Source of the DNA: an uncultured Mycoplasmataceae bacterium
Lineage (GTDB): Bacteria > Bacillota_I > Bacilli_A > Mycoplasmatales > Mycoplasmoidaceae
Length of the DNA stretch: 64,000 bases
Direction of reading: 5' to 3'
Assembly (NCBI GenBank): GCA_947429165.1
Contig: CANEON010000001.1
Coordinates: forward strand, 237,021-301,020
Positions 1,836 to 40,697 of this stretch are shown piece after piece; within the stretch, counting starts at the first letter, position 1, and each line of letters starts with the position of its first letter. Both the position numbers and the translations under genes were made by a program. The notes beneath the pieces were generated by a model. The model did not search any database. It was not told where the DNA came from and saw only the letters and a list, made by a program, of their open reading frames with translations.

Positions 1836-3734
1836 TTATTTTATCTTAAAATCGTAAAATGCATTAATAATTTTGATTGTTTCTACCATCTCTTCTTTAT
1901 TCACATAACAAGATTGGATTCTTGTTTTTGTTCTATCTGATTTTAATAACATTAACCCATCACCATTGCCAAATAAGTTTAATGCTTTTGGCGAATTTAA
2001 GAATAATTTTGAAACATTTTCATCATCTGTTTTAAAAATAAAATATGAGGAAATATTTTTTTGTAACTCTTCGTTTCATAAATACGAATCAATCGTTTGA
2101 GCATATAAAATAACCTGAATTCCACACATTTTCGCTTCTCTGGATAATAATTCATTAAGAATCGCAGAATTGTTTGGTGTCTCACCTAAAAATTGATCAA
2201 CGTCAAATAACGCAATTAATACTTTACTTATTTTGTTATCTGGATTTTTTTGGTTATATGTATCAACATTAGAACAATGCGCCTTAGAAAGTAAAGTTTT
2301 TGTTTGTTTTAAATCTTCAAGAACGTTTGATAAACAAGTGTTTGTTTCGTTTTGACTAGAAGTTGGTGACGACAATAAATGAGTTAATCCAGAAAAAGAT
2401 TCAAATATTTTTTCTTCTTTGCATGAACACAATAATACTTTTAAATCATTTGGTGTATTTAAGAAAACGTAAGAAAGAATCATCGAAGAAACTTGCATAA
2501 TTGCACCACTACCAGGTTTACCGATTATCAAAGTTGAAGGACTAACATTAAAATCGTATAGTACATTGATTCCGCTGTATGTTGCACCTACTGCAGCCAT
2601 GCCAGAATGAACTGTTTTTTGTGTAGTTAATACATTTTTAATTGACACCCTTGAAGGATCTTTATTTAATACTTCTATCGTGATTTTAGAACCTTTAACA
2701 GAAAAGTTTATTTTTTCTGTTTTAAATAAATCAAACAAACCTTTCTTTAGATGAACTAATTTATTAATTTGTTCTTCATCTGAAAATTTATAAACATATT
2801 CACAATATAAAGGCATTACATTAGAAGTAACAAAAGCTAATCCTATGTTGTTATCTCTAATAAAGTCATTTAATTGCTTAATTGTCTTTGCAGATCTTTC
2901 GGTATTCTTGTGATAATTGTCTATACTTGTATCTGTTAAGAAAGATAATGGCGGAGTTGCTTGAACATTGTTGGCCGCTTTCATTTTTATAGAGTTCAAA
3001 TCAAAAATATTTACCTTTTTATCTTTTCTTGTTCCATTAAGTTCATCTTCTGGTTTCTTTTCATCAACATAAACTCCTCCAAGCGCATGAACAATTGATC
3101 GTTTTATCTTATTTAAAAACTTAATGTTCTTTACCCCAAACAAAACTAAAATTGCGGCAATTAATAGAACAACTTCAAAAATAAACAATGTTGACCATTG
3201 CATGATAAATGATAAACTTACAAAAAATTCTCCAATTAATCCACCAGTAATATTAGAGTTAATAAAATTAATAAACCAAAATTTAAAAGAATTTATTTTT
3301 AAATAATCTCCAAAGTAAATGTGATATTTGTATAGAGGATCAATAAAATTTTCGCCTATGTTTTGTTGAATATGATTTCCCGCCAATCACGAAGACGCAG
3401 ATGTCATAATAAAAATGAACAAAAACAAAAGTGTTTCAAATATCCACATCTTATGTGTGAAAAAAGTTTTCAAAATGCTCTTATTACACAATTTAAAAAT
3501 AAGTATTAGATATAGAAAAGAATAAACAAAATATTTAGAAACTCCAAATAAATATTCGAAGAATATCGAATCTAAATAACACCCTGTATACGGCAATCTA
3601 AATAGTGATATAGTCACTAAAATCATTAACATGCAACAAGTAAAAATTCTTGATGTTTTTCTTGCTCTGTTATAGTTGGCTAAAATACTAGAATTTACTT
3701 CGGATATGTCTTGGTTTGCTTTTTTAGTATCCAT
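1836..3734 (-). CDS. FtsK/SpoIIIE-family protein with N-terminal TM region and degenerate Walker A/B motifs
   Basis: Track ORFs 3387-3734 and 2076-3386 share a frame across TGA, and I read the tail down to TAA at 1836. FtsK-like blocks are present: STLIIGKPGSGAIMQVSSMILS, CGIQVILYAQT, FGNGDGLML. Walker A is GKPGSGAI rather than GxxGSGKS, and Walker B is FDVDQF rather than DE. Confidence 0.75.
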
Positions 3735-3742
3735 ATATACAA

Positions 3743-5428
3743 CTATTTTGAAAATATTATAGTTGTTATAACAAGTGGCTTTTTGCTAAATTTTTTGTCA
3801 AATTGTTTTCCTACAATTTTTCTAACAAACAATTTGTATTCTTTTACATCAAAAGTTTTAGCTGCAAGTTGTGCTTTTGCATATTCATTTAAAGATTTAA
3901 CAAATTCTTCATTTAATTGAGATAGTATTTGTTTGTTTGCATCTGTAATATTTAAAACACCAACAACATCAAAATTAAATTTAATAATTTCTTTGGTCTT
4001 ATTTGAAAGTAAAAGATTAGCTAGTACAACACCAGTTTCTTTCATTTGATCTCTTTCAAACATTGAACTTGTTTCGCCATCAAGTGAACCTTGAAAGTTT
4101 ATAAATTGCGGAGTTAACTTTACAAATTTCTTTGCAGATAATAATTGTGCGTTCTCAAATGTTACTTTGTCGCCGTTATCAAGAACTAATATTGAGTTCT
4201 TATTAATTCCCATAGATCAAGCGCACTTTTTGTATGCTTCAAAACTCATGTGTAATCCGTTTACTGGAATAATGTATTTTGGTTTAAAACAGTTGATTAA
4301 GAATTTGTGATCTTCATTTGAAGCTTTTAAAGGAAGAATTGTTTTTGGTAATTTATAAATTTGATTAATATTTGAACGGTATAAATTATCAATTAAGTTT
4401 GCTTCTGCTTTTTCATATCCAAACAAAGTGTTGTTTGCATAGACAAAATTGTCAGACGGTAACAATTGAATTTTTGGATCTTCTCCGTTAATTACTTTTT
4501 GTAATTTAACAAAATATTTTTCTAATGAATCAACAATTAATACAACCGCGTTCGGATTTTGTTCAAGTTGAGAGTCGTTGATGATTTTTAGATTCTTAAT
4601 AAATAGTTTTTTTGTTTCTTGTAAGTGTTTAAAAGTGTAAAAAAAGTTTTTACCGTAAATGCATATTGGTCTACCCATTGATGCACATGCACTAACAAGT
4701 GATAACATACGGTAAATTTCAAAATCATAGCATGACACCAACACTCTTGTATCAATGTGCTCTTGTAATATTCCAACAAAGTATTTAATAACATGAGCAT
4801 TTGGATAAGTAAAGCCAGTTGACTCTCCAACTAAACCAGAACCAACAATTAATGCAAGACATCTTGTTCCAAATAATTGAGAAATTTTCAAATAGTCATT
4901 TGGGAATAAATCGCCAATACTTGAATTTAAAACAAAATCATCAATATAAATAATTGCTCCGTCTTTTGTATTAAATACAAAACCTGTAGAATGAGGTGTA
5001 TATGAAGACACTTTGAACATCGTTACTGATGCTTTTCCTATTTGATTAGGTTTTAGTGTTTCAAGTGTTCTAATATTTAGGTTTAATGTTGTATTGGTGT
5101 TGTAGAAAAGATTTCTAAAATAAGTGATTATTATTGAAGCACTAATATCGTTTGTATAAATTGGAATATTAGGTAAAAGTTTATAAAGATATTGCAACCC
5201 ACCAAAATTAATGTAAGTTGCATTACCAATAAAAATACCTTTGATGGCATTTTTGTTATTAACTATTCATGAATAGTCAGGAATTATCTTCTTAATTCCA
5301 AGTGATGTTGATGTGGGCAAAGACACGCCGCAGTTTAAGATATAAATATCACCATCTATGGTTAAAGAATAACAAGGGTTTTGTTTTTCATCTAGTCCGC
5401 CAAAACCTAAAAAATCAATTTTTGACAT
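3743..5428 (-). CDS. RNase J-like MBL/beta-CASP fold protein lacking the HxHxDH metal motif
   Basis: ORFs 3743-4213 and 4217-5197 share a frame across TGA, and the N-terminus was read to the ATG at 5428. The N-terminus MSKIDFLGFGGLDE...IKGIFIGNATYINFGGLQYL aligns to the RNase J block ...GIFITHGHEDHIGG. The C-terminal PVNGL sits where HGE is expected. Confidence 0.7.
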
Positions 5429-18833: not shown

Positions 18834-20435
18834 TTATTTAACTTCAATTTTTGTTTCGAAGATGTCTTGTTTTTCTCAAATTAAAGCTTGATTGTAACTC
18901 TTATCTGTGTATTTAATAACTAACTCGTTTAATATTGGAACAAGAATTAATATAGCACACATTATTCAGAATCACATACATGCCATTCATGCTTGCATAG
19001 TAAATGCATTTTGGTGAAATAAACCTCATGCATCAAAACTTGCGTTTGGGTTTGTGGCAATAGCACCACAGAATTGTCAAATCATACCGTAAGCAAATAC
19101 GAAATAGCATCCAAATGCTCCAATGCCTGCAGCAGCAACTTGTCCTTTTTGCTTTACAACTTCTGGTGCTTTTGGTTTGTATCTGTTAAATATAGATGCA
19201 GCTGATAGTGTTGCATAAATACCAAAGAAAGCTAATACTATAAAGTTTGATACTCCATCAAATATTTGGTCTGTATCCATTACACATGAAGGAATACCTA
19301 AAATCACAATATATAAGATTTGAGTGATTATTAATAAGATAAATCCATTTAATAAGAATTTACCATTTCCTAATTTTTTGATTCATTTGCTTCCCGCAAT
19401 TACTTCTTCTTCAATTGCTGAATCAAAAGATCTAATTGCACCCATAGTCATTGAGTTTAAAACACCAAAAATCGAAATAAAAATAAAGATTGAAATTATT
19501 AAATGGAATGCTGTTTTTCAACCTTCACTGAATGAGAAAACATAATCAAATACAGCATATGCACTTCCGCATCCTACACAAATTTGACCTAATGTAACTA
19601 ATAGGTATAGAATCCCTGAAACAACCATTGAAACCACAATAGATAAAGGAATATTCTTATTTGGTTCTTTCATTTCTCCAGCAATGTTTCCAATAATTAA
19701 GAAAGAATCAAATGCAAATAAAATTGCAGGTAATGAATCTAACATTCCGGCAAAATTAAATTTGCCATCATAATTGTTTCCTGACTTATCAATTGCTTCT
19801 GTAGCATGAGTAAATAAGTTTTGTCCACTGTGTAAAGAACCAAAGATTATTCCAGAAAAAATAACCAATGCTAATGGAATAAACTTTAATAATGTAGTAA
19901 TGCCTGAACATTTTTGTAACACGTTTGATGCAAACAAGTTAAGTGTTGCAAAAAAGAAAATTCCAGCAACAGCAACCAAAAGAACATAGCCCATATGTGC
20001 TGTAATATTGTTATCGGAATAAAAGCAATTGAATATTGCTTCACTAAAGAATATTGCATCTACTAGTACATAGATACCATAGTATAGTAAAGGAAGCATT
20101 ATCTTTACAGTTCTTCCTGATCTGTAACCAATAAACCTTTCAAACCAACCAGCTAAACCAGAGTTTGCTGATTTTGTTTTACATGTAACAATTTCACCAA
20201 ATGAATATGCAACAGCTAAAGCAATAATAAATGCAAGAATTCACGAACCTAAAATACCACCAGCATTACCGTGGTTATTTTGAAAAACGGTATTATTTTT
20301 AAAGAATATACCAACACCTACTGTACTTCCAATGATAATGGAAACAGCACCAAACAATCCTATTTTTGCTGCGGTTTTTCGTGATACATTAATATCAGAA
20401 CTTGCAGCATATTTGCTCTTTTTATTAAAACTCAT
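18834..20435 (-). CDS. APC-family amino acid permease
   Basis: ORFs 20241-20435, 19518-20099 and 19077-19307 share a frame across TGA. About 533 aa, about 12 TM helices, and an N-terminal GSTVGVGIFF motif typical of amino acid/polyamine permeases. Confidence 0.8.
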
Positions 20436-20437
20436 GA

Positions 20438-20815
20438 TTATTTTTTATAAGCAATAGCTTCAATTTCGATTAAAACGTCTTTAGGAAGTCTAGCAACCTC
20501 AACGCAGCTTCTAGCTGGTTTATGACTTGAGAAATATTGTCCATATACTTCATTAACTTTCGCAAAGTCATTCATATCTTTTAAAAAGATACCGCAACGA
20601 ACAACATCATTTAATGTACATCCAGCAGCTTCTAAAACTGCCTTAACATTTTCAAGTGATTGTTTTGCTTGTTCTTGTACATCTTCACTAACTTTAGTCA
20701 TTGTTGAAGGTACAAACGGAATTTGTCCTGAAACAAATACCATGTTTCCCGCTTCAATAGCTTGAACGTATGGTCCAACTGCTGCAGGTGCATTATCTGT
20801 GTGAATTACTTTCAT
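20438..20815 (-). CDS. ridA: RidA/YjgF family reactive-intermediate deaminase
   Basis: 125 aa with [20 protein letters not shown]...[22 protein letters not shown], the classic YjgF/RidA signature. Confidence 0.9.
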
Positions 20816-22073: not shown

Positions 22074-22781
22074 ATGTCAAAAAATCAAATGTTATATGAA
22101 GGTAAAGCAAAGAAAATTTTTGCTACAGATGTTGCTGATGAAGTAATCATTGAATATAAAGATGATGCAACAGCTGGCAATGGGGCAAAAAAAGGTACTA
22201 TCAGCAATAAAGGTATTTTAAATAACGCAATTACTACATTCATTTTTGAAATGCTAAAAGAACACGGCATCCCAACTCACTTTATTAAGAAATTAAATGA
22301 TCGTGATCAATTATGTAAAAAAGTAACTATCGTTCCATTAGAAGTAATTGTTAGAAATGTTGCTGCTGGAAGCATGGCTAAACGTTTGGGAATTGAAGAA
22401 GGAACTTCTTTAAAAACTCCCGTTCTTGAAATTTCTTACAAAAACGATGCATTAGGTGATCCATTAATTAACAATTACCATGCGGTTGCAATTGGAATAA
22501 CAACATTTGATGAATTAAATACTATTTATTCTTACACTAAAAAAATTAATGAATTACTAATTGAATTCTTTAAAAAACAAAACATTCGTCTTATTGACTT
22601 TAAGATTGAATTTGGAAAAGACAAAGATGGTAAAGTTTTGTTGGCTGACGAAATTTCTCCAGATACTTGTAGATTATGAGATCTTACAACTAATGAAAAA
22701 TTAGATAAAGATCGTTTTAGAAGAGATATGGGTAAGGTTGAAGAAGCTTACCAAGAAATTTTCAAAAGATTATCTAAATAA
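22074..22781 (+). CDS. purC: SAICAR synthetase
   Basis: YEGKAKKIF...LIDFKIEFG...[13 protein letters not shown]. The ORF continues across TGA at 22677-22679 to TAA at 22781. Confidence 0.93.
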
Positions 22782-22784
22782 TAT

Positions 22785-24200
22785 ATGAAGTTGTACGAAC
22801 ATACTTTTGATTTTGAATTAGACAAATTCAAAGATGAATGTGGTGTCTTTGGTGTCTATTCAAAATCTAACAAAAATAATGTTGCATTGTTAACCTACTA
22901 TGGTTTATTTGCTTTGCAACACCGTGGTCAAGAATCTGCAGGTATTGCTATAAGCAATGCTAAAAATGTTATATGTAAAAAAGGTCTTGGTTATGTTGGT
23001 GACGTTTTTACAAAAGACTTAATGCAACAATTATCAAAAGGCAATCCTAAAATTGCTATTGGTCATGTTCGTTATTCAACAGCTGGAAGTAAAACAGTTG
23101 AAAATGCTCAACCATTTGTTGTAAAAACTAAAGCTGGTTCAATTGCCGTTGCTCACAATGGTAATTTAGTTAATGCAAATTCTCTAAGAGAACAATATAA
23201 GAAAAAAGGTATGAAATTTGTTTCTTCTGTTGATTCAGAAGTAATTGCAAATATCATTGCACATAATCTTAAAAAAGAAAAAACAATTGAAGATGCAATC
23301 ATTAAAACAACTAAAGAAATTAGGGGTGCATATGCTTTAGTTGTATTAACTAAAGATAAATTAATCGGTTTAAGAGATCCTAATGGTATTAGACCATTAT
23401 GTTTAGGAAAATTATCAGACGGTTCATATATTCTTTCATCTGAAAGTTGTGCTTTTAGTTCAACTGGAGCTAAGTTTGTACAAGACATTAAAAAGGGTGA
23501 AATTATTACAATCACTAATAAATGTGTAAAAACAAAAACTTATAGCAATGCTCCAAAAAAATCTTGTATCTTTGAATATGTTTATTTTGCTAGACCTGAT
23601 TCTACAATTGATGGGATCAATTGTTATTTGTCTAGAATTGAACAAGGTAAATTACTATATAAGGAACATCCTTTAAAAGCTGATATGGTAATTGCCGCAC
23701 CAGAATCTGGAAATTATGCGGCTATGGGTTATTCTCAAGCTTCTAAAATTCCTTTTGGTATTGGTTTAATTAAAAATAGATATATTGCAAGAACTTTTAT
23801 TAAACCTACTCAAGAATTAAGAGAAAGAGATGTTTATATTAAATTAAATCCTCTTGAAATTAATGTTAAGGGTAAAAACTTAGTTTTAATTGATGACTCT
23901 ATTGTAAGAGGAACATCTTCTCTTCACTTTGTTAAGGCTCTTAAAAAAGCAGGAGCTAAGAAAGTATATTTCTTATCTGCTGCTCCAATGGTTAAATGAC
24001 CATGTTTCTTAGGGATTGATACTCCTAATAAAAAAGATTTAATGGCTGCAAATATGTCATTAAAACAAATGCAAAAGAAAATCGGTTGTGACTATTTAGG
24101 ATTCTTAAGCATTAAGAGCTTATATAAATGTTGTTTAAATAAAGATGAATATTGTGACGGATGTTTTACAGGAAAATATCCTGTTAACAAGGAAGAATAA
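22785..24200 (+). CDS. purF: amidophosphoribosyltransferase (propeptide + Cys nucleophile, Fe-S type C-terminus)
   Basis: ECGVFGVYS N-terminal nucleophile motif after a propeptide, PRTase motif LVLIDDSIVRGTS, and C-terminal CDGC cysteines. Joined across TGA at 23997. Confidence 0.93.
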
Positions 24201-24211
24201 GGAGAATAAAG

Positions 24212-25231
24212 ATGAAAAAGAAATTAACATATCAAAATAGTGGTGTAAATATTCATGAAGGCTATAAGTCTGTAAGTTTATTTAAACAACATACAAAGAA
24301 AACTATGAATAATTTAGTTCTAAACGGATTAGGTTCATTTGCTGGAATGTTAAAAATTCCAAGCTGATATAAAAAACCTATCTTAGTTTCTGGAACTGAT
24401 GGCGTAGGAACTAAAATTGCTATTGCATGTAAGAATAAGAAATATGATACAGTTGGTATTGATTGCGTAGCAATGTGTGTCAATGATGTTTTATGCCATG
24501 GTGCTAAACCTTTATTTTTCTTAGATTACATTGCTTGTGGAAAATTAGAAGCAAAAGTTGCTGCTGATTTAGTTAAAGGTGTAAGCGAAGGGTGTATACA
24601 GTCTGGTAGTGCTTTAATCGGTGGTGAAACCGCTGAAATGCCTGGTTTCTATAAAGCAGGAGATTATGACTTAGCAGGTTTCTCTGTTGGTATTGTTGAT
24701 CAAGACAAAATTATTAATGGTAAAAACATTAAAGCTGGTGATGCTTTAATCGGTATTGCTTCAAGCGGTTTCCATTCAAATGGTTATTCATTAGTAAGAA
24801 AAGTATTTACTAATATGAATGAATCATTCAAAGGTAAACCATTATGAAAAACTTTATTAACACCTACAAAAATTTATGTTAAACCTGTTCTTAATTTATT
24901 AAAAAAATACGAAATTAAGGGTATGGCTCACATTACTGGTGGAGGATTTATTGAAAATGCTCCTAGAATGTTGAAACCAAATTCTAACTTACAATTGGTT
25001 ATCGACACTAAGTCTTATCCATTGCCTGACATTTTTAAATTAATTAATAATCGTGGTGTTGAAAAATCACACATGTACAACACGTTCAACATGGGTATTG
25101 GATTCATGCTTTGTGTTAACAAAAAAGATGTTAAGAAAATTCTTAAAGACTTATCTTTAATGAAAGAAAAAGCATGAGAGATAGGTTATGTAGAATCTAA
25201 TAAAAAAGGTCAAACAATAAAGATCATTTAA
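24212..25231 (+). CDS. purM: AIR synthetase
   Basis: [35 protein letters not shown] and MAHITGGGF. Three track pieces are in frame across TGA. Confidence 0.93.
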
Positions 25232-25266: not shown

Positions 25267-28200
25267 TTAACATGTAACATTGACAGCTGGCGCTAATACG
25301 AATTGTTGATTTTCCGGTGTAACAAATTTATAAATTATGTTATTGTTTGAAATGCCAAAAGTAAATTTAACATCATTCTCACCCATCATAGAATCAGCTC
25401 ATCATCCGTCTCCTTCTTTTTTGAAAACTTCATCGTCTAAAGCTCTGCGAAAACTTATGTTTATAGTAATCGAAGATGTAGATCTATCATAGTTATATGT
25501 TATATCTAAAAATTCATCAATTAATAGCGACCCGTCTCTACCGTTTTTTGTTCACTTGTAATCTGTTTTTTTGACTTGATCTGCAGCATTTCTTAATTGT
25601 ATACCGGTTCAAGTCATCTCCACAACAATTTGTGAATTGTCATCATAGTTAATGTTATCCCCTGTTAGTGTTAATGTGTATTCTGAATACTCCCAAGTCG
25701 GTTCTCCTCTGTGTATGTATATAGCATTCGTAATGTTGTCATTTTCAAAATATTCTTCTGTGTAATTGGTTACAGAAGGTTGATTACCATCAACAAAAAT
25801 AACTGTTAATGTTAATGAATCTGTTATTGATTCGTCAACTGCAGATTTTGCAGTAATTGTAATTGCTGCTTCGCTTGTTGCACCACTATATGCAGATCAA
25901 GATAGAACACCATTTGATGAACCTATATTAAACAAATCAGGAACAAGTGGACATTCTAGAGACCATTCAACTTTTTTAAATTCATCTGATGCTGTACCTT
26001 CGGTTTTTACACTAAACGGAACTAAATATTCTCCTTCGACATTTTTTTGAATATAAAGCACATCACTTCCAGTTCAATTTATCTTAATAGCAGTTAGTCT
26101 TTCTTGAATAGTTAATGAGAAACATTTTGATGCAGAAATTCCATATTTTCTAGATGTTACATTAACAGTGAATTCATAATTATCACATTTACTTGTGCCT
26201 GGTCATTTAATTTTTCTTTGTGCGCTGTCAAATTCTACCACACTACCAGATTGACTAATACTTCATGTAAGATCACTGTAATCGGTTGGAATGTCTATAG
26301 GATCAAATGATGCAGATAGAACATCTGAACTACCTTCTGTACCGACAACACCTGTCAAGTTTGTCTCTCCATCATAATCTATTGATAGTGATGTTGGTGT
26401 TAAAGCTGCCAATGTTAATGTAAATATATCTGAATCAATATTAATTCCTGTTGATGCGCTTGTTGCATTAATTTTAAATGTTACTATAGTTTCATCAATT
26501 GAATCCATATATGATTTTCATTGAATTTGTCTAGATTGGTTTACAAAAACCAAATCTGAAGATGTTAAAACGCCATTAATTCTTAATTCTTTTACTCTAT
26601 ATACAACATCTGATACAGTTTCAGTATATGATGGTGTTATTAATGAAATTGCTTGTGTAGAAGTTCCTGCTTCTCTAACTTTTCCTGAAAGCGAAGTGCT
26701 TATTGAGTTAAATTCTACATCATCTAAATTCGGATCAACATTCGGTTTTTTAAGCACAAGTGTTATAACAGATGATGAAGCTCAATCTACTGTTGAACCT
26801 GTAGCGGTTGGCTTAGCTTGAATTTTAAATCTAAGGGTTAATTGTTGGTTTTCGTTGCATGATCAAGTTAAATTATTTCCTGATACAGCAAGTGACACGT
26901 TTGATACTTCTCTATTTAAGTCAACATCTCAAAATCTAGTTTGGAATCCTTGGTCTGCATATTGAGAATTAACCTTTATATTAACTCCAGAAGCTTGACC
27001 GTTTCTGTGGATGTATCCTTCAATTTGAGAGGCTCCATTTCATTCACAAGTAATTGATTCTGGTAAAGGTTGTTTTAAGTTTAAAGTAATTGTTTTTGGT
27101 GAACTTGATACATCACCACATTTACCGACAACCGTAATTGTGCCAGTAGTAGCGCTAGTAATGTTTGTTGCATCTCAAGATAATATACCAGTGGTTTGGT
27201 TAATTGAAACATTTGCTGTTGCCAAAGAACTACTAGCTGTAACAACGAATTTTCTTTCTCCTATAGCATAAGATGGAGTTACTCCTAAAGTAAACGGTTT
27301 ATCTAATGAGCCAGTTTTTGAATAATCTGCATTGATTGTTGTTGCGCCGTTATATATAAGATCAACAGAACTTGCTGCTGCACCTTGCATAGATAAAGTG
27401 AAATGTAATGAATTACTTTCAACATTAGATGCTTTTGCAATTACATCAAATTCAACTGCTGAATTATCTCCTAAATCAGAAGCATAAATAGCTGGTCACG
27501 AAATTTTACCATCAGCAGTTATATTAATTTGCTTAGAAATATTTAGATTTTTAATTTCATAAGATGTTGTTATTCCTGGGTCTACGTCTGTAGGATTAAT
27601 TTGGTAAGAAAGGGCTTGAGTTGTTGTACCAGATTCACCTTCAGTTATAGTAAAGTTCTTCTCTCCAGGATAACTTAATGTTATATTTTGAATTGGATTG
27701 TAAGCGATAACTAGAGTAACGTTTTTCTGTTCACTAATAATATCTGTATCCTTTATCTTAGCAGATACACTAAAACTGTATGTCCCTACAGCGCTATGTG
27801 CTTTTCAATTAATGTATCCATCTGAATCAACAGATATTCAATCACTATAGTTTGTAACAATGTATTCAACTTCTAAGTTTGGAGAATAGTTTGATCCTTG
27901 TATTTGATATGAAAATTTATTAGTAGATTTTCCAGATTTATTGATAAAACCTTTAGTAGTAATAGGTGTGGTGCCATCTCATGAGATCGAAATGCCAGTC
28001 GGTTGTTCGTAGTGAGTTTCATATATAAAACTTACAGTATTTGCAGCACGAATTTCAGGCATTTCTTTAATACGTGCCACTATCCAAAAATCAACTCTTC
28101 CTTCGGTAGGACGAGATTTAAATTTAAGTTTATTATCTGAAGTAAGTTCAACATAATCTTTGATATTGCTAGTGTTTGATTGTATTATGAATTCAACATG

Positions 28201-29415
28201 TAAGTCAGGGGAACAATCAGCAGCATTTTTTATTACACCAGTACAATATCCTTCTGATGTTTTTTCTGTATTTACTGGTAAATCAAATGTACAACCTTCT
28301 GATGATGGTTTGTTTCAAGTTCATTCTATCCCTGTCGGTTGTTGATAATTTAATGAAAGAGTAAATGTTTTGGTAGCTTGTAAATTAAATTGATCACATT
28401 CAGCTTTAATTGTAAAACTGTAATTTTGGATATATGAATGTGAATCTCACGATATAACGCCATTGTTAACACGAATAAAACTTGCAGCATCACCCATAAC
28501 ACTTCATCTAATAGAGTCTGCAACTGGTTGTTTTGCATAACTTGGGCTAGAAACTAACGTTAGTCTGTTTGTATCAGATCCAGCTTTATTAATAGACCCA
28601 GTTAAACTAGTTGAAGTTCCTGAATAATTAATTTGTATAGATTGTGGTTGTGGAAGATCTAGAGTTAATTGAAAATATTCCTTATCTGTCATTCCACTAT
28701 CTGTGTGTGTTGCAACAACTTGGAAAGTAACAACTTTTTTTACAGAAGAGTTAACAGCGTTTCAACCAACATATTTTTTTCCGTTTTTTTCAACGATTTT
28801 AACTATCCCAGTTTCACTTTCACTACCAGAAAGTATATTTATAGTTGAACTTTGGTCAGCATCGGCTGGTAAAATCTCTGTTTCTAGAGCTTGTGCTTCG
28901 TAAACACCAGCTTGATGAACAAAACCTGATATTTTGTGAACTCCTTTTTCTGGTCACTTTAAATCAAAGGTTGTTGGGCTTGGTTTGTGGAGATTTAAGA
29001 TAAATGATAGTGTTTCAGACTTTACATCTGGATAATTAACTGAATATGCGTATACATCAAAATGAATAATTAAATTTGGGTCGCTTGGAAGTTTACTTCA
29101 AGAAATAATTCCGTCATCATTTACACTAAATTTAACATTTACATTTTCAAGAACATCAAAATGATAGGTAACATTCTTATCAACATCCCCTTCTCCATCT
29201 ATATTGCATATTAAATGACCATATTGGTAATTACCTTCTCTATTAATTGTTCCTGGTAACTTTTTTTCTTGTGATCCGCTTCACGATAAATCAATTTTTG
29301 ATGGTTTTGTTAATTTTGAACCAACTAATGTAGAATAGATAATTCCACCAACAGCAACACTCATAACAAGAGTAATGCTTGATATTCATCCGACTAATTT
29401 TTTTCAATTTTTCAT
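25267..29415 (-). CDS. giant (1382 aa) membrane-anchored surface protein with about 12 tandem Ig-like (Big_2-like) repeats
   Basis: Start MKNWKKLVGWISSITLVMSVAVGGIIYSTLVG (signal anchor, no lipobox). Track ORFs 28504-28692, 27175-27390, 26518-26757 and 26263-26508 are all in the start frame. Same repeat pattern as 14543-18740. Ends ...APAVNVTC*. Confidence 0.75.
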
Positions 29416-29467
29416 ATTCATTTTCCTCAATATATATAACACTATAACACTATTTTTTAAAGGGGAC

Positions 29468-29496
29468 AAAAAAATCCACATTTAGTGGATTTTTGT
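29468..29496 (-). terminator. rho-independent terminator after the YiiX-like lipoprotein gene
   Basis: aaaaatccac-attta-gtggattttt hairpin followed by a T-run on the minus strand. Confidence 0.55.
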
Positions 29497-30910: not shown

Positions 30911-31507
30911 ATGAAAAATATTGCAGTTTTTGTCTCTGGTGGTGGAACTAATTTACAAGCAACCATCAATGACGCTAAGAAATCTAAATTTTATAAAGTT
31001 TCATTAGTAATTTCTAATAAAGATAATGCTTATGGGCTAGTTAGAGCTAAAAAGGCTAACATACCTAATATATGTATAAAAAGCAAAGATGTATCGAAAA
31101 TATTAACAACATTATCTAAATATAAGATTGATTACATTGTATTGGCTGGTTACTTAGCAATAGTGGATCCTAAAATTATTAAAAAATATCCAAACAAGAT
31201 TTTAAATATCCACCCTTCATTAATTCCTTCTTTCTGTGGTCCGGGCATGTATGGAATTCATGTGCATGAAGCAGTAATTAAATCTGGAGTTAAAACGAGT
31301 GGATGCACAACTCACTTTGTAAACGAAAGGGTTGATGGTGGTGCAATAATTATGCAAAAAACAGTCCCTGTATATTATGAAGACACACCTGAAATTCTTC
31401 AAAAACGAATATTAAAATATGAACATCAAATATTGGTTAAATCAATCAACTTGTTAGTAACAAATAAATTAAAGGTAATAAACGGAAGGACAAAAGTATT
31501 AAAGTAA
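30911..31507 (+). CDS. purN: GAR formyltransferase
   Basis: 198 aa with [14 protein letters not shown]...[12 protein letters not shown]....HEA... motifs. Confidence 0.92.
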
Positions 31508-31509
31508 TT

Positions 31510-33015
31510 ATGAAAAAAAGAGCATTAATAAGTGTATTCAAAAAAGATAAAGTATTAGAACTTGCAAAGTTCTTAATTTCTCATGATGTTGAAGTTGTTT
31601 CAACTGGTGGAACTTTTAAATATTTAAAAGAAAACAATGTACCGGTAACAGAAATTAGTGACATTACTAATTTCCCCGAAATGTTAGATGGTAGAGTAAA
31701 AACTTTACATCCTAATGTTCATGGCGGAATTTTAGCCATTAGAGATAACAAGCAACATATGAACACAGTTAATAAACATAATATTGGTTTAATTGATTAT
31801 GTTGTTGTTAACTTATATCCTTTCTTTGAAAAAGTTAAGGAAAACTTAACTTTTGAACAAAAAGTTGAGTTTATTGATATCGGTGGCCCAACCATGTTAA
31901 GATCTGCAGCCAAAAACTTTAAAGATGTAACTGTTATTTGTGATCCTGATGATTACGAATTAGTAATGAATGAAATCGCTAACAATGGATCAACTTCAAT
32001 TGAAACAAGACAAATGTTAGCATCTAAGGTATTTAATTTAACAACTGCATATGATGCAGCTATTTGCAATTTCTTATCTAAAGACGAATTCCCTAAATAT
32101 CTTTCTGTTTCATATGTTAAGAAGCAACCTCTAAGATATGGTGAAAACCCTCATCAATCTGCTTGCTTCTACGAAGATACCGTAAGAAAAGGAGCGATGA
32201 ATAGTTTTGAAATTCTTAACGGTAAACAACTATCATATAACAATTTCAAGGATGTTGATATTGCTTGAAAATCAGTTTGTGAATTTGAACCAAGTGAATA
32301 TGCGTGTTGTGCATTAAAACACAATACCCCTTGTGGTTTTGCTATTGGTTCATCTGTATATGATTCATATATGAAAGCATATAATGTTGACTCTACTTCA
32401 ATCTTTGGTGGTATTGTTGCATTCAATAACACCGTTACAGCAGATGTTGCTACAGAAATGTCTAAAATCTTTTTAGAAGTAATTTGTGCTCCTGAATATG
32501 AACCAGAAGCTCTTGAAATTTTAAGAAAGAAAAAGAATTTAAGAGTTCTTAAATTTCACTCTAAACCAACTAACACTCATGCTTATATTAGTGTTGATGG
32601 TGGAATTATGGTTCAAAGTGAAGACTTAAATTCAAAAGAAGAATACAAAGTTGTAACTAAACTAGCACCAACTGAAGAACAATTGAAAAATCTTAAGTTT
32701 GCTATGAAAGTAGTTAAATACGTTAAATCAAATGCTATTGTTGTTGCAAATAATGGTGTTGCTTGTGGTATTGGTGGTGGACAAGTTAATAGAATTTGAC
32801 CAACTCAAGATGCTCTAAGACGTGGTAAGGGTGCAACCGTATTAGCATCTGATGCTTTCTTCCCATTTAGAGACGTTGTTGATACATGTGCTAAATACGG
32901 AATTAAGGCAATTATCCAACCAGGCGGTTCATTAAGAGACCAAGAATCAATTGATGCATGTAATGAACACGGTATTGCAATGATATTTACAGGAGTAAGA
33001 CACTTTAAACACTAA
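31510..33015 (+). CDS. purH: bifunctional AICAR formyltransferase / IMP cyclohydrolase
   Basis: [13 protein letters not shown]...STGGT...[14 protein letters not shown] and C-terminal [11 protein letters not shown]. Pieces are in frame across TGA at 32266 and 32797. Confidence 0.93.
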
Positions 33016-33017
33016 TT

Positions 33018-34265
33018 ATGAAAATATTATTAATAGGATCAGGCGGTCGTGAACATGCATTAGCATGGAAGATGGCCCAAAATAAAAAAGTTACAAAAAT
33101 TTATGTTGCTCCAGGAAATGCTGGGACAGCTACAGAAAATAAATGTGAGAATGTAGCTTTACATTCTAACAGCGAATATGTTAAGTTTGCTAAAGCAAAC
33201 AAAATTGATTTAACTGTTGTTGGCCCTGAAGTTCCGTTAGTAGATGGAGTGGTAGATTTATTTAAGAAAAATAAGTTAAAAATCTTTGGACCAAATAAAA
33301 AAGCAGCTCAATTAGAAGGTAGTAAAGTTTTTGCAAAGAAATTTATGCAAAAACACAATATTCCTACTGCAAAGTTTGGTAGTTTTACAAATCCAAAATC
33401 TGCTATTAAATATTTAAAAGAGAAATGCGATTTTCCAATAGTTATTAAAGCTGATGGACTAGCAGCTGGTAAAGGTGTAGAGATTTGTCCTAATTTAAAA
33501 TCGGCTATCAACTGTATTAATGAATTTATGGTTAAAAATATCTTTAAAACAGCAGGTAGTAAAGTTGTTATTGAAGAATTCTTAGAAGGGCCAGAAGCTT
33601 CTATTATTTGTATTACTGATGGTAATACAATATATCCTTTTATTTCTTCAAAAGATCATAAACAAGTATTTGATAACGATAAAGGTCCTAATACTGGTGG
33701 TATGGGCGCCATATGTCCAAACCCTTATGTAACAAAATCTGTTTTGAACGATTTTGTCAAACAAATAATGTTACCAACATTAAATGGTCTTAAAAAAGAC
33801 AAGATTGATTTTATGGGTTTTATTTTCTTTGGAATTATGATTACAAAGAAAGGACCTAAACTTCTTGAATACAATGTAAGAATGGGCGATCCTGAAACAG
33901 AATCTATTTTACCATTGCTTAAGAATGATTTAGTTGATGTATTTAATAAAGCGCTAAGTAAAAAATTAAAAGATGTTAAATTATCTTGAGAAAAGAAAGC
34001 ATCAATTAATGTTGTTTTATGTTCTAAAGGTTATCCAAAAAAAGCAGAAACAGGAAAAGAGATTAAGATTAAAAAATTAAAAAATTCTAAAATTTTCTTT
34101 GCAGGTACTAAACTTGAAAATAAAAAACTAATCACAAGTGGAGGAAGAGTTTTATCTGTTGTTTCTACAGGAAAAACTTTATCTGAAGCTACAAAAAAAG
34201 TTTATGCTGACATTAAGAACATAAACTTTTTTGGAATGCATTATCGTAAAGATATTGATAAATAA
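33018..34265 (+). CDS. purD: GAR synthetase
   Basis: MKILLIGSGGREHALAWK...VIKADGLAAGKGV...NVRMGDPETE. Continues across TGA at 33987 to TAA at 34265. Confidence 0.93.
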
Positions 34266-36371: not shown

Positions 36372-37535
36372 TTATTTGTGTGATTTTTTTCAACAATTTG
36401 CTACAGCTTTTGCTACAGCTTTAGGCACAGCCATATCTAATGCTGATGGAAGAATATAGTTTTTATTTAATTGACTTGGTTTTACCAATTTAGCAATTGC
36501 CTTTGCTGCAGTAATTTTCATTTCATCTGTAATTTGTTTTGCGCCCGCATCAAGAGCACCTCTAAAGATTCCAGGGAAAACCATAACATTGTTAATTTGA
36601 TTAGGGAAATCACTTCTTCCTGTCCCCATAACTTCAACACCTGCTTTAAGTGCAACATCTGGCATAATTTCGGGAATAGGATTTGCCATCGCTAACACGA
36701 TTGGCTTTTTATTCATTCCTTTAATCATCTCAGGCTTTAAGACGTTACCTGCAGAAACACCAATAAAAATATCTGCACCTTTTAATGCATCAGTTAAAGT
36801 ACCTTTAACTTTTTTCTTATTAGTAATTTTTGCCAATTGTTTTTGGTAAATGTTTATCTTTTTATCATTTGGATTTAAAATTCCTGTTCTATTACAGAAG
36901 ATAAGATTTCCTATACCCATTTTTAGTAATAATTTACCAATAGCCATACCAGCAGCACCAGGACCATTAATAACTGCGGTAACTTTGCCCATATCCTTTT
37001 TAACAACTTTTAAAGCATTGATAATTGCTGCAGCAACAATAATTGCAGTACCATGTTGATCATCGTGAAAAATTGGAATATCACACATTGCTTTTAATTT
37101 GTCTTCAATTTCAATACATCTTGGACTAGCAATGTCTTCTAAATTAATACCACCAAATGAACCTGATAGTAAATAAATTGTTTTTACAATGTCATCAACA
37201 CTCTTAGATTTAATACATAATGGAACCGCATTTACATTTGCAAATCTTTTAAACAATGCGCATTTACCTTCCATAACAGGCATACCAGCTTCTGGGCCAA
37301 TATCACCTAATCCTAATACTGCTGTACCATCAGTAACAACAGCAATAGTGTTTTTTCTTCATGTTAAGTCATAAGACTTTTTAATATCTTTTTGAATAGC
37401 TAAACAAGGAGCAGCAACTCCTGGTGTATATGCTAAAGCAAGATCTTGTTTGTTGTTAATTGGCGCTTTACAAACAATATCAATTTTTCCTTTTCATTTA
37501 GCATGTAATTCTAATGATTTTTTACCGTAATCCAT
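36372..37535 (-). CDS. NAD(P)-dependent malic enzyme (short form)
   Basis: The N-terminus read to the ATG at 37535 is MDYGKKSLELHAKWKGKI.... Motifs: VVTDGTAVLGLGDIGPEAGMPVMEGKCALFK and INGPGAAGMAIG (Rossmann). Tail read across TGA to TAA at 36372. Confidence 0.85.
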
Positions 37536-37554
37536 AATTATTCTCCTTTATTTA

Positions 37555-38928
37555 TTAAACCATTTTTTTTGGGTCTACGATCTTAATAAATTCTCGATCA
37601 GGAATTATATTAAGATGTCTATTTGCTTCTCTTAATGTTACTTTATGTTTATATGCATATTTAGAAATAGCAGCAGACTTTTCATAACCTATTGCATCTT
37701 TAAGTTGAGTGACTAGCATTAATGAATTATTAACTAATTCACTCATACGATCTTCGTTAACTGTAATTCCAGAAACACAATGAATATTAAAACTATTAAT
37801 CATATCTGATAACAATGTTACAGAAGTAATGAAATCTTGAATCAGGTAAGTACCAAAAGTATTTAATTCGAAATTTCCTTGAGATGCTAAAAACGCAATA
37901 GATGAGTCATATCCAAATACATTAATGCACATCATTGCCATACCTTCACATTGTGTTGGGTTTACTTTACCCGGCATAATTGAACTTCCTGGCTCGTTTT
38001 GTGGAATGTTGATTTCACCAAACCCAGATCTTGGTCCAGAAGCTAAGAATCTAATATCTTGTGCAATTTTATATAAATCCATTGCTAAGGCTTTAATTGC
38101 GCCGTGTGCATATGCTATTGTTCCTTTCGATCAAGAAGCATAATATTTATTGCCAACAACTTTAAACTTTTTTGTATTTAATATCTTGTTAATTTCATTA
38201 ACACAATAGTGATCATAGTTATGCTTTGGTGCTGTACATCCAGAACCAATTGCAGTACCACCACAATTTAAATAATATTGTGTTTCAATTGCCTGTTTAG
38301 CGTTTTTTAAATCAGTTTCAATTGCAAATCTTCAGCCACTAACTTCTTGACCAAAAGTTAAAGGAACAGCATCTTGAATGTGTGTTCTACCTAACTTGAC
38401 AACATTTGCATATTTTTTTTCTAGTTTTTTAAAACTGTTAATTAATCCTTCTGCAGCAGGAACTAAGTATTTATTAAATACATAGATTGCAGTCATATTT
38501 GTTGATGATGTATATGAATCATTTGTAGATTGAGACATATTAGCATCATCATTTGGATGAATCATCTTTTTCTTTGCAATTTGGTTGGCGCGATGAGCAA
38601 TAACTTCGTTAATGTTCATATTTGTTTGCGTACCACTACCAGCTTGAAAAGCTTTTGTAGGGAAGTGTTTGTCTAATTTACCTTCTCAAATTTCTTTACA
38701 AACTTTATATATCAAGTCAGCTTTTTGCTTAGGCATCTTTTTACATTTGTAGTTTGCAATAGCACATGCAGCTTTTAAAACTGCTAGTTGATGAATTAAA
38801 TCAAGACTAACTATTTCATGGCCAATTTTAAAGTTTTGTAAACTTCTTTGGGTTTGTGGCCCTCACAATGCCCAATTTGGTACTTCAATTTTTCCTAATG
38901 AATCTTTTTCGATATGACATTTTTTCAT
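37555..38928 (-). CDS. class II fumarase/aspartase-superfamily lyase, divergent paralogue
   Basis: [17 protein letters not shown]-loop and GRTHIQDAVPLTFGQE. The second conserved block reads SQSTNDSYTSSTN instead of [13 protein letters not shown]. ORFs 38332-38619 and 37555-38082 are in frame. ATG at 38928. Confidence 0.8.
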
Positions 38929-38941
38929 AATCATTTAATCT

Positions 38942-40309
38942 CTAACACATTTTTGATGGATCAACAATTTGATCAAATTCTTTTTCTGATAAATATCCAG
39001 ATTTTATAGCAGCTTGTTTTAATGAAATTCCTTCTTTAACAGCAAGTTTTACAATTGTTGCTGCTTTATCGTAACCAATCTTTGTGTTTAATGATGTTGC
39101 CAACATTAAACAATGGTCTAAATTGTTCTTTATTCTCTTGTTATTTGGTGTAATTCCAATAACACATTTTTTATTGAATGAGTCCATTCCATCAGCTAGC
39201 AAATTTATTGATTGGTTGATGTTATAAGCAATCATCGGCATAAATGTATTTAATTGAAAATTACCTTGAGTATTACCAATTGTAATTGCTAAATTGTTTG
39301 CAATCACTTGAATACACAACATCATCATGCTTTCACATTGAGTTGGGTTGACCTTACCAGGCATAATCGAACTTCCCGGTTCGTTTTGTGGGATGAATAT
39401 TTCTCCTATACCGCAATTCGGACCAGATGATAATCATCTAATATCATTTGCAATTTTATATAAGTTTTCAGCAAGAATCTTTAAACAAGAATGAAAATGT
39501 GAAACGCTATCTTTCGAACTCAAACCATGGAATTTGTTTTTCATTGGAGTTACTTTTGTCCCAACAATATTAGATAAATGTTTGCATACTATAGTGTCAA
39601 AGTTTTTAGGTGTATTTAATCCTGTACCTACCGCTGTTCCACCAATAGGGATCATAGAAACAAACTTAATAGATTGTTCAATCATGTCTTTTGCGTTTTC
39701 TAGCATCGCAATATAAGCAGAGAACTCTTGAGAAAGTTTGATTGGTGTTGCATCTTGTAAGTGTGTTCTACCAACCTTAATTACTTTTTCAAAATTTTTA
39801 GTTATCTTCTTTAAAGAGTTTATTAACGATTGCAAAGAAGGAATTAATTTCTTCTTTGTTAAGATCAAACACATTAAATGAATTGCAGTGGGAAATGTGT
39901 CATTCGAACTTTGCGACATATTAACATGATCATTTGGGTGAACATTTGTTTTTGAATTCATGCTTAATGATCTGTTTGCAATAACTTCGTTAACATTCAT
40001 GTTTGTTTGTGTCCCACTTCCTGTTTGTCATATAGAAAGAGGGAAGTTATCATCTAACTTACCCGATAATATTTCATCAACAACTTTACATATTAGATTT
40101 GCTCTTGTTGTATCAAGTTTTTTTGCATCTTTGTTAGCTAATGCACAACCCTTTTTTATCATAGCCAAAGAATAAATTAATGTCTTTGGCATTTTCTCAT
40201 CATTAATGGTAAAATTTTGTTTACTTCTTTGAGTTTGAGGCCCTCAATATTTATCACATGGAACTTCAATTTCACCAATTGAATCCTTCATTATTTTTGT
40301 CTTACTCAT
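38942..40309 (-). CDS. fumC: class II fumarate hydratase
   Basis: Canonical FumC blocks: [48 protein letters not shown] and [18 protein letters not shown] at 40309. Confidence 0.85.
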
Positions 40310-40364
40310 AATTCATCTATTTAAATAATTATATTATTTAAATATTTGTAAATTAATTTAACTA

Positions 40365-40697
40365 TTATTTAGTTCATTTATGTTGTTTAAATTGTTGAAG
40401 AACAAAGTTATTAAATTCTTTCTGTTCTTTAAATTGTTCAAGAACAAAGGCATTAAATTTAGTTTGTTGTTTATTAAATTGCTGTTGTTGGCTGATGAAA
40501 TCTAAAACACGATTGTTAAATTGATCTTGTTTTTTCTCGTAATCAATAAATCATTCAGGTTTTTTCACAATTTCACCAGTTCCCTTAATACTCATTATAT
40601 CAACAACATATTTCTTATTATTTACACACTTAATGATCTCTATAAGAGATCTTCTTGATTTACCTAATTTATACTTTTCATTACACTTATTATTCAT
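40365..40697 (-). CDS. hypothetical 110-aa protein with Q/F/N-rich C-terminal repeats (absent from the ORF track because of two TGA codons)
   Basis: Walked codon by codon: MNNKCNEKYKLGKSRRSLIEIIKCVNN...FNAFVLEQFKEQKEFNNFVLQQFKQHKWTK*. No family recognised. Confidence 0.4.
40386..40459 (-). repeat. imperfect direct repeat of about 32 bp with a 42-bp period
   Basis: tttaaattgttgaagaacaaagttattaaatt versus tttaaattgttcaagaacaaaggcattaaatt; encodes FN.FVL.QFK. Confidence 0.6.

Follow-up and report, generated by a model that had tools for sequence, protein, structure and literature searches.

A fumarase-derived lyase between fumC and a malic enzyme gene in a mollicute: a possible route from aspartate and fumarate to pyruvate

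The loss of enzymes of the tricarboxylic acid (TCA) cycle is a textbook feature of Mollicutes. Phytoplasmas possess a malate-to-acetate pathway that involves MleP, the malic enzyme SfcA, pyruvate dehydrogenase and acetate kinase (PMC3322544). A second point of reference is found in a cultured member of the Bacilli, Granulicatella balaenopterae (L071), where a canonical aspartase, FumC and a short malic enzyme are encoded in a LysR-linked operon whose intergenic gaps measure 16 and 12 nucleotides (nt), and where the first gene bears all of the aspartase signatures (QGGAGTS, QSTND and KVNPVIPE). In the literature we found no work on fumarases or aspartases in Mollicutes, and none, experimental or other, on an aspA-fumC-malic enzyme operon. 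Here we analyse a cluster of three genes from a 64,000-nt stretch of DNA (the window) of an uncultured Mycoplasmataceae bacterium (assembly GCA_947429165.1, contig CANEON010000001.1, positions 237,021 to 301,020), encoding a canonical class II fumarase (FumC), a divergent lyase of the same superfamily, which we call DIV, and a short-form malic enzyme. The cluster is real, and its genes make up a small node of four-carbon acid metabolism in an organism without a TCA cycle. Comparison with relatives leads us to propose, with a probability of about 0.5, that DIV interconverts L-aspartate and fumarate plus ammonia, which would link the cluster to aspartate.

The genome to which the window belongs (G000) is 709,615 bp long and is assembled into 7 contigs. 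The named genomes closest to it are metagenome-assembled genomes (MAGs) labelled uncultured Mycoplasmataceae or Mycoplasmatota, the source of contigs related to the window is ruminant gut metagenomes, and a scan of genome contigs returned only two near-identical MAGs. The window has a G+C content of ~30%, and only with TGA translated as tryptophan do its long genes stay open: in the cluster region, translation table 11 yields fragments, whereas table 4 yields exactly three open reading frames (ORFs), all on the minus strand, with TGA codons at conserved Trp positions such as W22 of FumC in K-Y-W-G-P-Q-T-Q-R-S. The co-directional, tightly spaced arrangement described in an earlier note on this DNA is thus intact under table 4. 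The gap between fumC and DIV measures 7 nt when the first ATG of DIV (MIMKK...) is taken as its start codon, or 13 nt with the second ATG (MKK...), while the 19-nt gap between DIV and the malic enzyme gene contains an AAAGGAG ribosome-binding site upstream of the latter. This operon-like layout recurs in the same order in G080, G085 and L004, and a terminator scan found no minus-strand terminator-like site within the cluster. A promoter scan of the cluster region returned sites no more numerous than in shuffled sequence.

The two outer genes encode enzymes whose identities, as first assigned, are supported by family models, structures and conserved residues. FumC scored 649 bits against TIGR00979 (fumC_II), below the cut-off of 664.75, which in a whole-genome search with this model was exceeded in only 7 of 14 control genomes. 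The best PDB match is E. coli FumC (5.6e-159); the protein carries the motifs QTGSGTQ, SQSSND, GRTH and [15 protein letters not shown], and in the alignment it is identical to E. coli FumC at Ser98, Thr100, Ser139, Ser140, Asn141, Thr187, His188, Ser318, Lys324, Asn326 and Glu331, which we take, from the literature on FumC and AspB, to be the catalytic and binding residues. The malic enzyme matches PF00390 (102.3 bits, cut-off 23.1) and PF03949 (76.6 bits, cut-off 23.5), carries the metal-binding and catalytic blocks NLEDI and FHDDQHGTA, and finds its best structures in PDB entries 2a9f (2.6e-128) and 5cee (2.8e-127), both named NAD-dependent malic enzymes, of the short type. An identity as malolactic enzyme was rejected, the NF041582 model giving only 64.4 bits against a cut-off of 850. 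By homology and conserved residues, canonical FumC should convert fumarate to L-malate, and the short malic enzyme should convert malate to pyruvate, CO2 and NAD(P)H, as had been suggested.

DIV was likewise correctly recognised as a divergent member of the fumarase superfamily. Its best family is TIGR00979 at 542 bits, ~120 bits below the cut-off, and it is 46% identical to the FumC encoded beside it. In a maximum-likelihood tree of 23 DIV proteins, 27 canonical mollicute proteins (CAN), 35 other FumC proteins, E. coli FumC and four PDB aspartases, the DIV proteins form a single clade (support 100) whose sister group is CAN (support 95), with both groups lying inside the fumarases and the aspartases forming the outgroup, so that DIV is best read as a fumC duplicate that arose within this lineage. 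The stem branch leading to DIV is about six times as long as that leading to CAN (0.48 versus 0.079 substitutions per site), and the trio of DIV sequences that includes the one in the window sits on a further long branch of 0.53. Within this trio dN/dS is 0.03-0.055, the same as in CAN, which indicates strong purifying selection. A recent tandem duplication was rejected, given the level of identity between the copies and a split older than the two genera in which they occur. A profile search across 1.84 billion representatives revealed no separate large DIV family. Judged from these sequence comparisons, DIV is an old, conserved, lineage-specific duplicate of fumC under strong constraint.

The changes that set DIV apart include several in the active-site blocks. 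DIV of the window carries the motifs QAGSGTQ, SQSTNDSY, GRTHI and TQCE, the last of these within KVNPTQCE. At sites that are invariant in 63 fumarases, the DIV clade has fixed T96A in block C1, S140T and F144Y in block C2 and L189I beside His188, together with L91T, L268T/S, M362G, P363T and L402V; the changes that equal the aspartase residue are S140T, F144Y, F242Y, L268T/S and L402V. DIV of the window retains Ser98, and only Ser140 (to Thr) is changed among its catalytic and binding residues, T96A, F144Y and L189I being neighbours. The counterpart of E. coli His188 is His185 of DIV, within an unchanged GRTH, and E. coli His149 aligns with an Asn. The subclade found in relatives that carry DIV next to a permease gene (layout B, described below) adds S98A (GAGT), G229A (GATA) and K264L, and at 18 strictly discriminating columns it reads as fumarase at 8, as aspartase at 4 and as neither at 6; four aspartase matches among 10 changes correspond to p ~0.01 if the chance match probability is 0.1. 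A metagenomic member of the clade (P0009) reads QGGAGTQ, against QGGAGTS in aspartases. The trio that includes the DIV of the window has YTSS and GSGC where the other members have YPT and GTGL.

We then considered how these genes are distributed among relatives. Among 135 genomes from this family, 29 have FumC-family genes, confined to two genera, and 106 have no TCA-type enzymes, in keeping with the earlier remark that such enzymes are unusual in mycoplasma-like genomes; the malic enzyme is present in the same 29 and one more. CAN and DIV occur together in 21 of the 29 and CAN alone in 7. DIV alone is apparent only in G053, where the contig opens with a fragment of the malic enzyme gene and an adjacent CAN would be cut off, so there is no confirmed case of DIV lacking CAN. 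Three layouts can be told apart: CAN, DIV and malic enzyme, as in the window and the three relatives named above (layout A); DIV, an APC-type amino-acid permease and malic enzyme, in about ten genomes, with CAN convergent or within 10 kb (layout B; genus g5, G048, G086, L006 and L008); and a lone DIV beside convergent RNase J-like and FtsK-like genes, with the CAN-malic enzyme pair elsewhere in the genome (layout C). Genes that intervene between parts of the module in relatives have no family match or encode surface proteins. FumC-malic enzyme pairs are also common in Clostridia.

Layout B provides the closest connection to an amino acid. The six such genomes tested, two of them single-contig, are without purA, purB and purH, and their only members of the lyase superfamily are CAN and DIV. 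Lacking these pur genes, they have no internal source of fumarate, which would leave their malic enzyme and two fumarase-like enzymes with no substrate except what the APC amino-acid-type permease imports. No canonical aspartase was found in these genomes. An aspartate aminotransferase was examined as an alternative link to aspartate and rejected: in G000 PF00155 matches SufS alone, and among the six permease-type genomes tested four gave no match.

The cluster is also connected to purine synthesis, as had been suggested from its position. In the window it lies 2.1 kb from the pur genes, counted from the end of purD to the malic enzyme gene, in agreement with the earlier figure of about 2 kb; the cluster and the pur genes are on opposite strands, so a shared transcript is impossible. 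Within the genus of the window, purH is present in 19 of 21 FumC-positive genomes versus 1 of 20 FumC-negative ones (Fisher p = 1.7e-8, although related genomes are not independent). The link is physical in two relatives (synteny loci L053 and L054), with purC-purF-purM-fumC-malic enzyme contiguous and co-directional in G084 and purM-fumC-malic enzyme contiguous at a contig start in G083. G079 and G082 have the same purC-purF-purM-fumC array, but in both a pair of ORFs (462 and 922 aa; L052 4073-8246 in G079, L051 2548-6722 in G082) separates fumC from the malic enzyme gene; these ORFs have no Pfam or NCBIfam match and occupy the position that DIV has in the window. Every pur-positive genome tested has both purA and purB, which in G000 lie outside the window. 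A fumarate reductase was considered as a sink and rejected, since in 20 of 20 genomes PF00890 matches only its first ~47 model positions (the N-terminal FAD-binding part), and no fumarate reductase was found in these 20 genomes. From co-occurrence and from the operon fusions in relatives, we infer that the FumC-malic enzyme pair removes the fumarate released by PurB (adenylosuccinate lyase) in purine-making genomes, in support of the fumarate-disposal idea of the earlier note; the pair is tied to the pur genes both statistically and physically.

If DIV acts on aspartate, the cluster could support a route of four steps. Aspartate, imported or internal, would be converted by DIV to fumarate and NH4+, as the comparisons above suggest; fumarate from both DIV and PurB would be converted by FumC to L-malate, and malate by the malic enzyme to pyruvate, CO2 and NAD(P)H, as predicted by homology; and pyruvate would yield acetate and ATP, for which the phytoplasma malate pathway is a precedent (PMC3322544). 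Onward conversion of pyruvate to acetate and ATP is possible because 19 of the 20 genomes tested have acetate kinase. All three reactions of the cluster are reversible, so the net flux could run in either direction. We advance more tentatively, at somewhat short of even odds, the fuller proposal that duplication of a fumarase in this lineage gave rise to DIV as an independently evolved aspartase, with DIV subclades preserving the successive active-site states QTGSGTQ/SQSSND, QAGSGTQ/SQSTND, QAGAGTQ and QGGAGTQ, and that with the permease, FumC and malic enzyme it forms an aspartate-fermenting, ATP-yielding pathway.

A number of observations weigh against an aspartase-like DIV. By every whole-protein measure it is nearer to fumarase than to aspartase: fumC models and fumarase structures outscore aspA models and aspartase structures, and the aspA model TIGR00839 gives 353 bits against a cut-off of 681.2, which places DIV outside that family. 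DIV keeps Thr100, Ser139, Asn141, Thr187, His188, Ser318, Lys324, Asn326 and Glu331 as well as the fumarase-type Gln101 and TQCE, and at the 18 strictly discriminating columns the sequence from the window reads as fumarase at 13, as aspartase at 2 and as neither at 3. The aspartase signatures GGAGTS and KVNPV-x-PE are absent from it, SQSTND alone being common to both. Gene conversion from an aspartase was rejected because no 40-residue segment of DIV is nearer to aspartases than CAN is, and the aspartase-like sites are thus better described as point convergence. The value of Ser140Thr as a marker of aspartases was likewise weakened by a library-wide profile search, in which Thr140 turned up in other fumarase-like representatives, so that this residue alone is not diagnostic. 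We know of no class II fumarase-clade enzyme with demonstrated aspartase activity. The permease of layout B is of the APC amino-acid type, with no finer specificity to be read from its sequence. On the purine side, G081 has purH without fumC or malic enzyme, hence fumarate disposal is not obligatory. The earlier suggestion that DIV might be aspartase-like therefore stands in part: the active-site substitutions, the permease of layout B, the lack of a canonical aspartase or an aspartate aminotransferase and the Granulicatella operon speak for it, and the whole-protein measures favour a fumarase.

The main and serious rival, which we consider less likely, is that DIV is a plain second fumarase, an isozyme differing in kinetics, regulation or stability, so that fumarate alone, whether released by PurB or coming from outside, would be turned into pyruvate by the cluster. 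Such an enzyme would be expected to keep all catalytic residues including His188 and Glu331, to find its best profile and structure matches among fumarases, to nest in the fumarase tree and to share Thr140 with other fumarase-like proteins, as DIV does. It would then have to be explained why two enzymes of the same function are kept at dN/dS ~0.04 in genomes of 0.6-0.7 Mb, why DIV is never confirmed as the sole copy, why its changes are concentrated in active-site blocks, and what the enzyme would act on in genomes without purA, purB and purH, where the substrate could arrive only through the linked amino-acid-type permease. An aspartate-converting DIV could also work in the opposite net direction, from pyruvate and CO2 through malate and fumarate to aspartate, feeding PyrB, PurC and PurA in a gut habitat rich in CO2 and ammonia, or recycling the fumarate from PurB. 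Aspartate is needed, since G000 carries purC and purA as well as the whole pyr operon, pyrB included, and the combination of de novo purines and pyrimidines, a class 1B dihydroorotate dehydrogenase and no aspartate aminotransferase fits this direction, as do the presence of pyrD in 3 of 4 tested g5 genomes without pur genes and the general reversibility of the three reactions. We regard this direction as doubtful, however, since the in-operon permease of relatives speaks for import, both pur genes and pyrD are missing from G048 and G086 although these carry the module, seven pur-positive genomes lack DIV and would be unable to use the route, and reductive carboxylation is usually the minor direction of malic enzymes.

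Two further explanations concern what DIV binds. It might act on another amino or hydroxy dicarboxylate, such as an N-substituted aspartate, hydroxyaspartate or tartrate, yielding fumarate, malate or oxaloacetate for the malic enzyme; the altered active-site blocks match neither family fully, the trio that includes the window has the additional unusual changes YTSS and GSGC on its 0.53 branch, and the superfamily holds many uncharacterised mixtures of motifs. No further pathway genes are conserved beside DIV, however, and among the amino acids that an APC permease could import only aspartate is known as a direct substrate of the superfamily, which makes this reading improbable. Finally, since active sites in this family are built from three subunits and the two lyase genes are adjacent in the window, DIV could be a non-catalytic or regulatory partner in mixed tetramers with canonical FumC; with its catalytic residues intact, and the two genes apart in most genomes, often on different contigs, we give this very little credence. 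Conversion of aspartate by DIV remains our preferred interpretation.

Several observations made along the way concern the superfamily and biosynthesis more widely. Among the fumarase/aspartase family representatives P0124-P0273, mixed signatures come in many combinations, for example SQSSND with QTGSGTS and KVNPVIPE in 7 of them, and from such combinations several subfamilies between fumarase and aspartase are apparently uncharacterised. P0124, an apparently eukaryotic protein of 1420 aa, has two aspartase-like domains that are separated and preceded by long regulatory-looking stretches, and it topped the profile search because the scores of the two domains add up. The pyr operon of G000, on contig C1 (208899-217284, outside the window), is complete for de novo pyrimidine synthesis, with carB, pyrE, pyrF, pyrD (class 1B), pyrK, pyrC and pyrB, an unusual biosynthetic capacity for a 0.7-Mb mollicute. 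Fumarate as the electron acceptor for its dihydroorotate dehydrogenase was rejected: pyrD is of class 1B (PRK07259, 388.8 bits versus 134.6 for class 1A), with pyrK adjoining.

The surroundings of the cluster are summarised in Table 1. Upstream of fumC lie a Gln/Asn/Lys-rich ORF of 110 aa (40365-40697) without a family match, just beyond the spacer, and uvrA; downstream of the cluster comes a BspA-type leucine-rich repeat (LRR) gene, followed by purD, purH and purN on the other strand. The pur genes of the window are split: three minus-strand ORFs, of 1404 (25267-29481), 102 and 297 aa and none with a family match, stand between purC, purF and purM on one side and purN, purH and purD on the other. 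RidA and an APC permease are indeed present in the window, as the earlier note had pointed out. This permease is the sole homologue in G000 of the in-operon permeases of relatives, apart from a 22% match on contig C2. The specific tie to the cluster that the earlier note had drawn did not hold: the RidA/permease pair is present also in relatives without DIV, and the permease is only 33-40% identical to the in-operon ones, so the pair is not specific evidence and its link to the cluster is weak.

Table 1. Location of the cluster and of neighbouring genes, in window coordinates
Feature	Position	Strand	Basis
fumC, canonical class II fumarate hydratase (P0001, 455 aa, 3 TGA=Trp codons)	38942..40309	-	TIGR00979, PDB, motifs
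DIV, lineage-specific fumC-derived paralogue (P0002, 459 aa, 4 TGA=Trp codons); proposed aspartate/fumarate lyase	37555..38934	-	TIGR00979, tree, motifs
Short-form malic enzyme (P0003, 387 aa)	36372..37535	-	PF00390 + PF03949, PDB
Short AT-rich spacer preceding fumC; a single promoter-like match (TTTACA, 16 nt, AATTAT at 40352-40325)	40310..40364	-	consensus match only
purC, purF, purM (purC = 22074-22781)	22074..25231	+	TIGR00081, TIGR01134, TIGR00878, all above cut-off
purN, purH, purD (purD ends 34265)	30911..34265	+	TIGR00639, NF002049/TIGR00355, TIGR00877, all above cut-off
RidA	20438-20815	-	TIGR00004 at 191.7 bits
APC-family amino-acid permease	18834-20435	-	40% / 33% identity to L008 (2816-4432) / L006 (7422-9059) permeases

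The neighbourhoods of DIV in other genomes are varied. Nine genomes (L025-L033) have a solitary DIV, which in seven of them is convergent with an FtsK-like gene located after one of RNase J-like type, DIV and the FtsK-like gene overlapping by 4 nt in several; we consider these neighbours uninformative. The window itself has ORFs that match the RNase J-like/FtsK-like pair in length and order at 1836-5428, far from DIV. In G025 (L035, 11603-15586) two genes lie between DIV and the permease gene, one encoding a protein of 614 aa without a match and the other a protein of 708 aa with a weak Peptidase_M20 match (E = 1.6e-4), which could release an amino-acid substrate; L034 (G028) has a gap of the same size.

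Taken as a whole, the interpretation offered in the earlier note is partly supported, and in part strengthened by comparison with relatives. A fumarase-malic enzyme pair kept together with de novo purine synthesis offers a testable answer to the question of how a minimal cell disposes of the fumarate set free in making purines. If DIV is an aspartase, it would represent a natural fumarase re-tuned to ammonia instead of water, and its subclades a roadmap for the change from fumarase to aspartase; to our knowledge, such a re-tuning has not been achieved by deliberate engineering. Aspartate would then join the short list of mollicute energy substrates, through a pathway not described in Mollicutes. 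Should DIV be only a second fumarase, the cluster would represent ordinary metabolism, though unusual for the group.

How the cluster relates to characterised enzymes and pathways can be set out as follows. Relative to E. coli FumC (1fuo/1yfe), the canonical copy is an ordinary member, and both lyases of the cluster match it in length, fold family (Lyase_1 + FumaraseC_C) and the [15 protein letters not shown] loop, and share with it His188/Glu331 and the B-site residues His129, Asn131 and Asp132; DIV differs in the clade-fixed T96A, S140T, F144Y, L189I, L268T/S, M362G and P363T. The aspartases AspA of E. coli (1jsw) and AspB of Bacillus sp. (1j3u) belong to the same superfamily and have the same catalytic Ser loop; SQSTND(x)Y is common to them and DIV, and GAGT, GATA and the N-L-x-x-x-T-W block are common to them and some DIV subclades. 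Unlike them, DIV has neither the aspartase GTS nor a V-x-P-E following KVNP, and falls outside the aspartase clade. The phytoplasma pathway is likewise that of a TCA-less mollicute in which a short NAD-type malic enzyme (5cee, a top match of the malic enzyme studied here) feeds pyruvate to ATP-yielding acetate formation; phytoplasmas, however, import malate by a 2-hydroxycarboxylate symporter and have no fumarase, whereas here the entry point is fumarate and, as we propose, aspartate (PMC3322544). The operon of G. balaenopterae follows the same logic as the cluster, with three tight genes for a possible fumarate-making lyase, a fumarase and a short malic enzyme. It differs in that a canonical aspartase comes first, whereas in the mollicute the extra lyase is fumarase-derived, stands second in the order and is encoded with TGA as Trp. 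By this analogy, the cluster would correspond, in a mollicute, to the aspA-fumC-malic enzyme operon of other Bacilli, a fumarase-derived enzyme taking the place of the aspartase.

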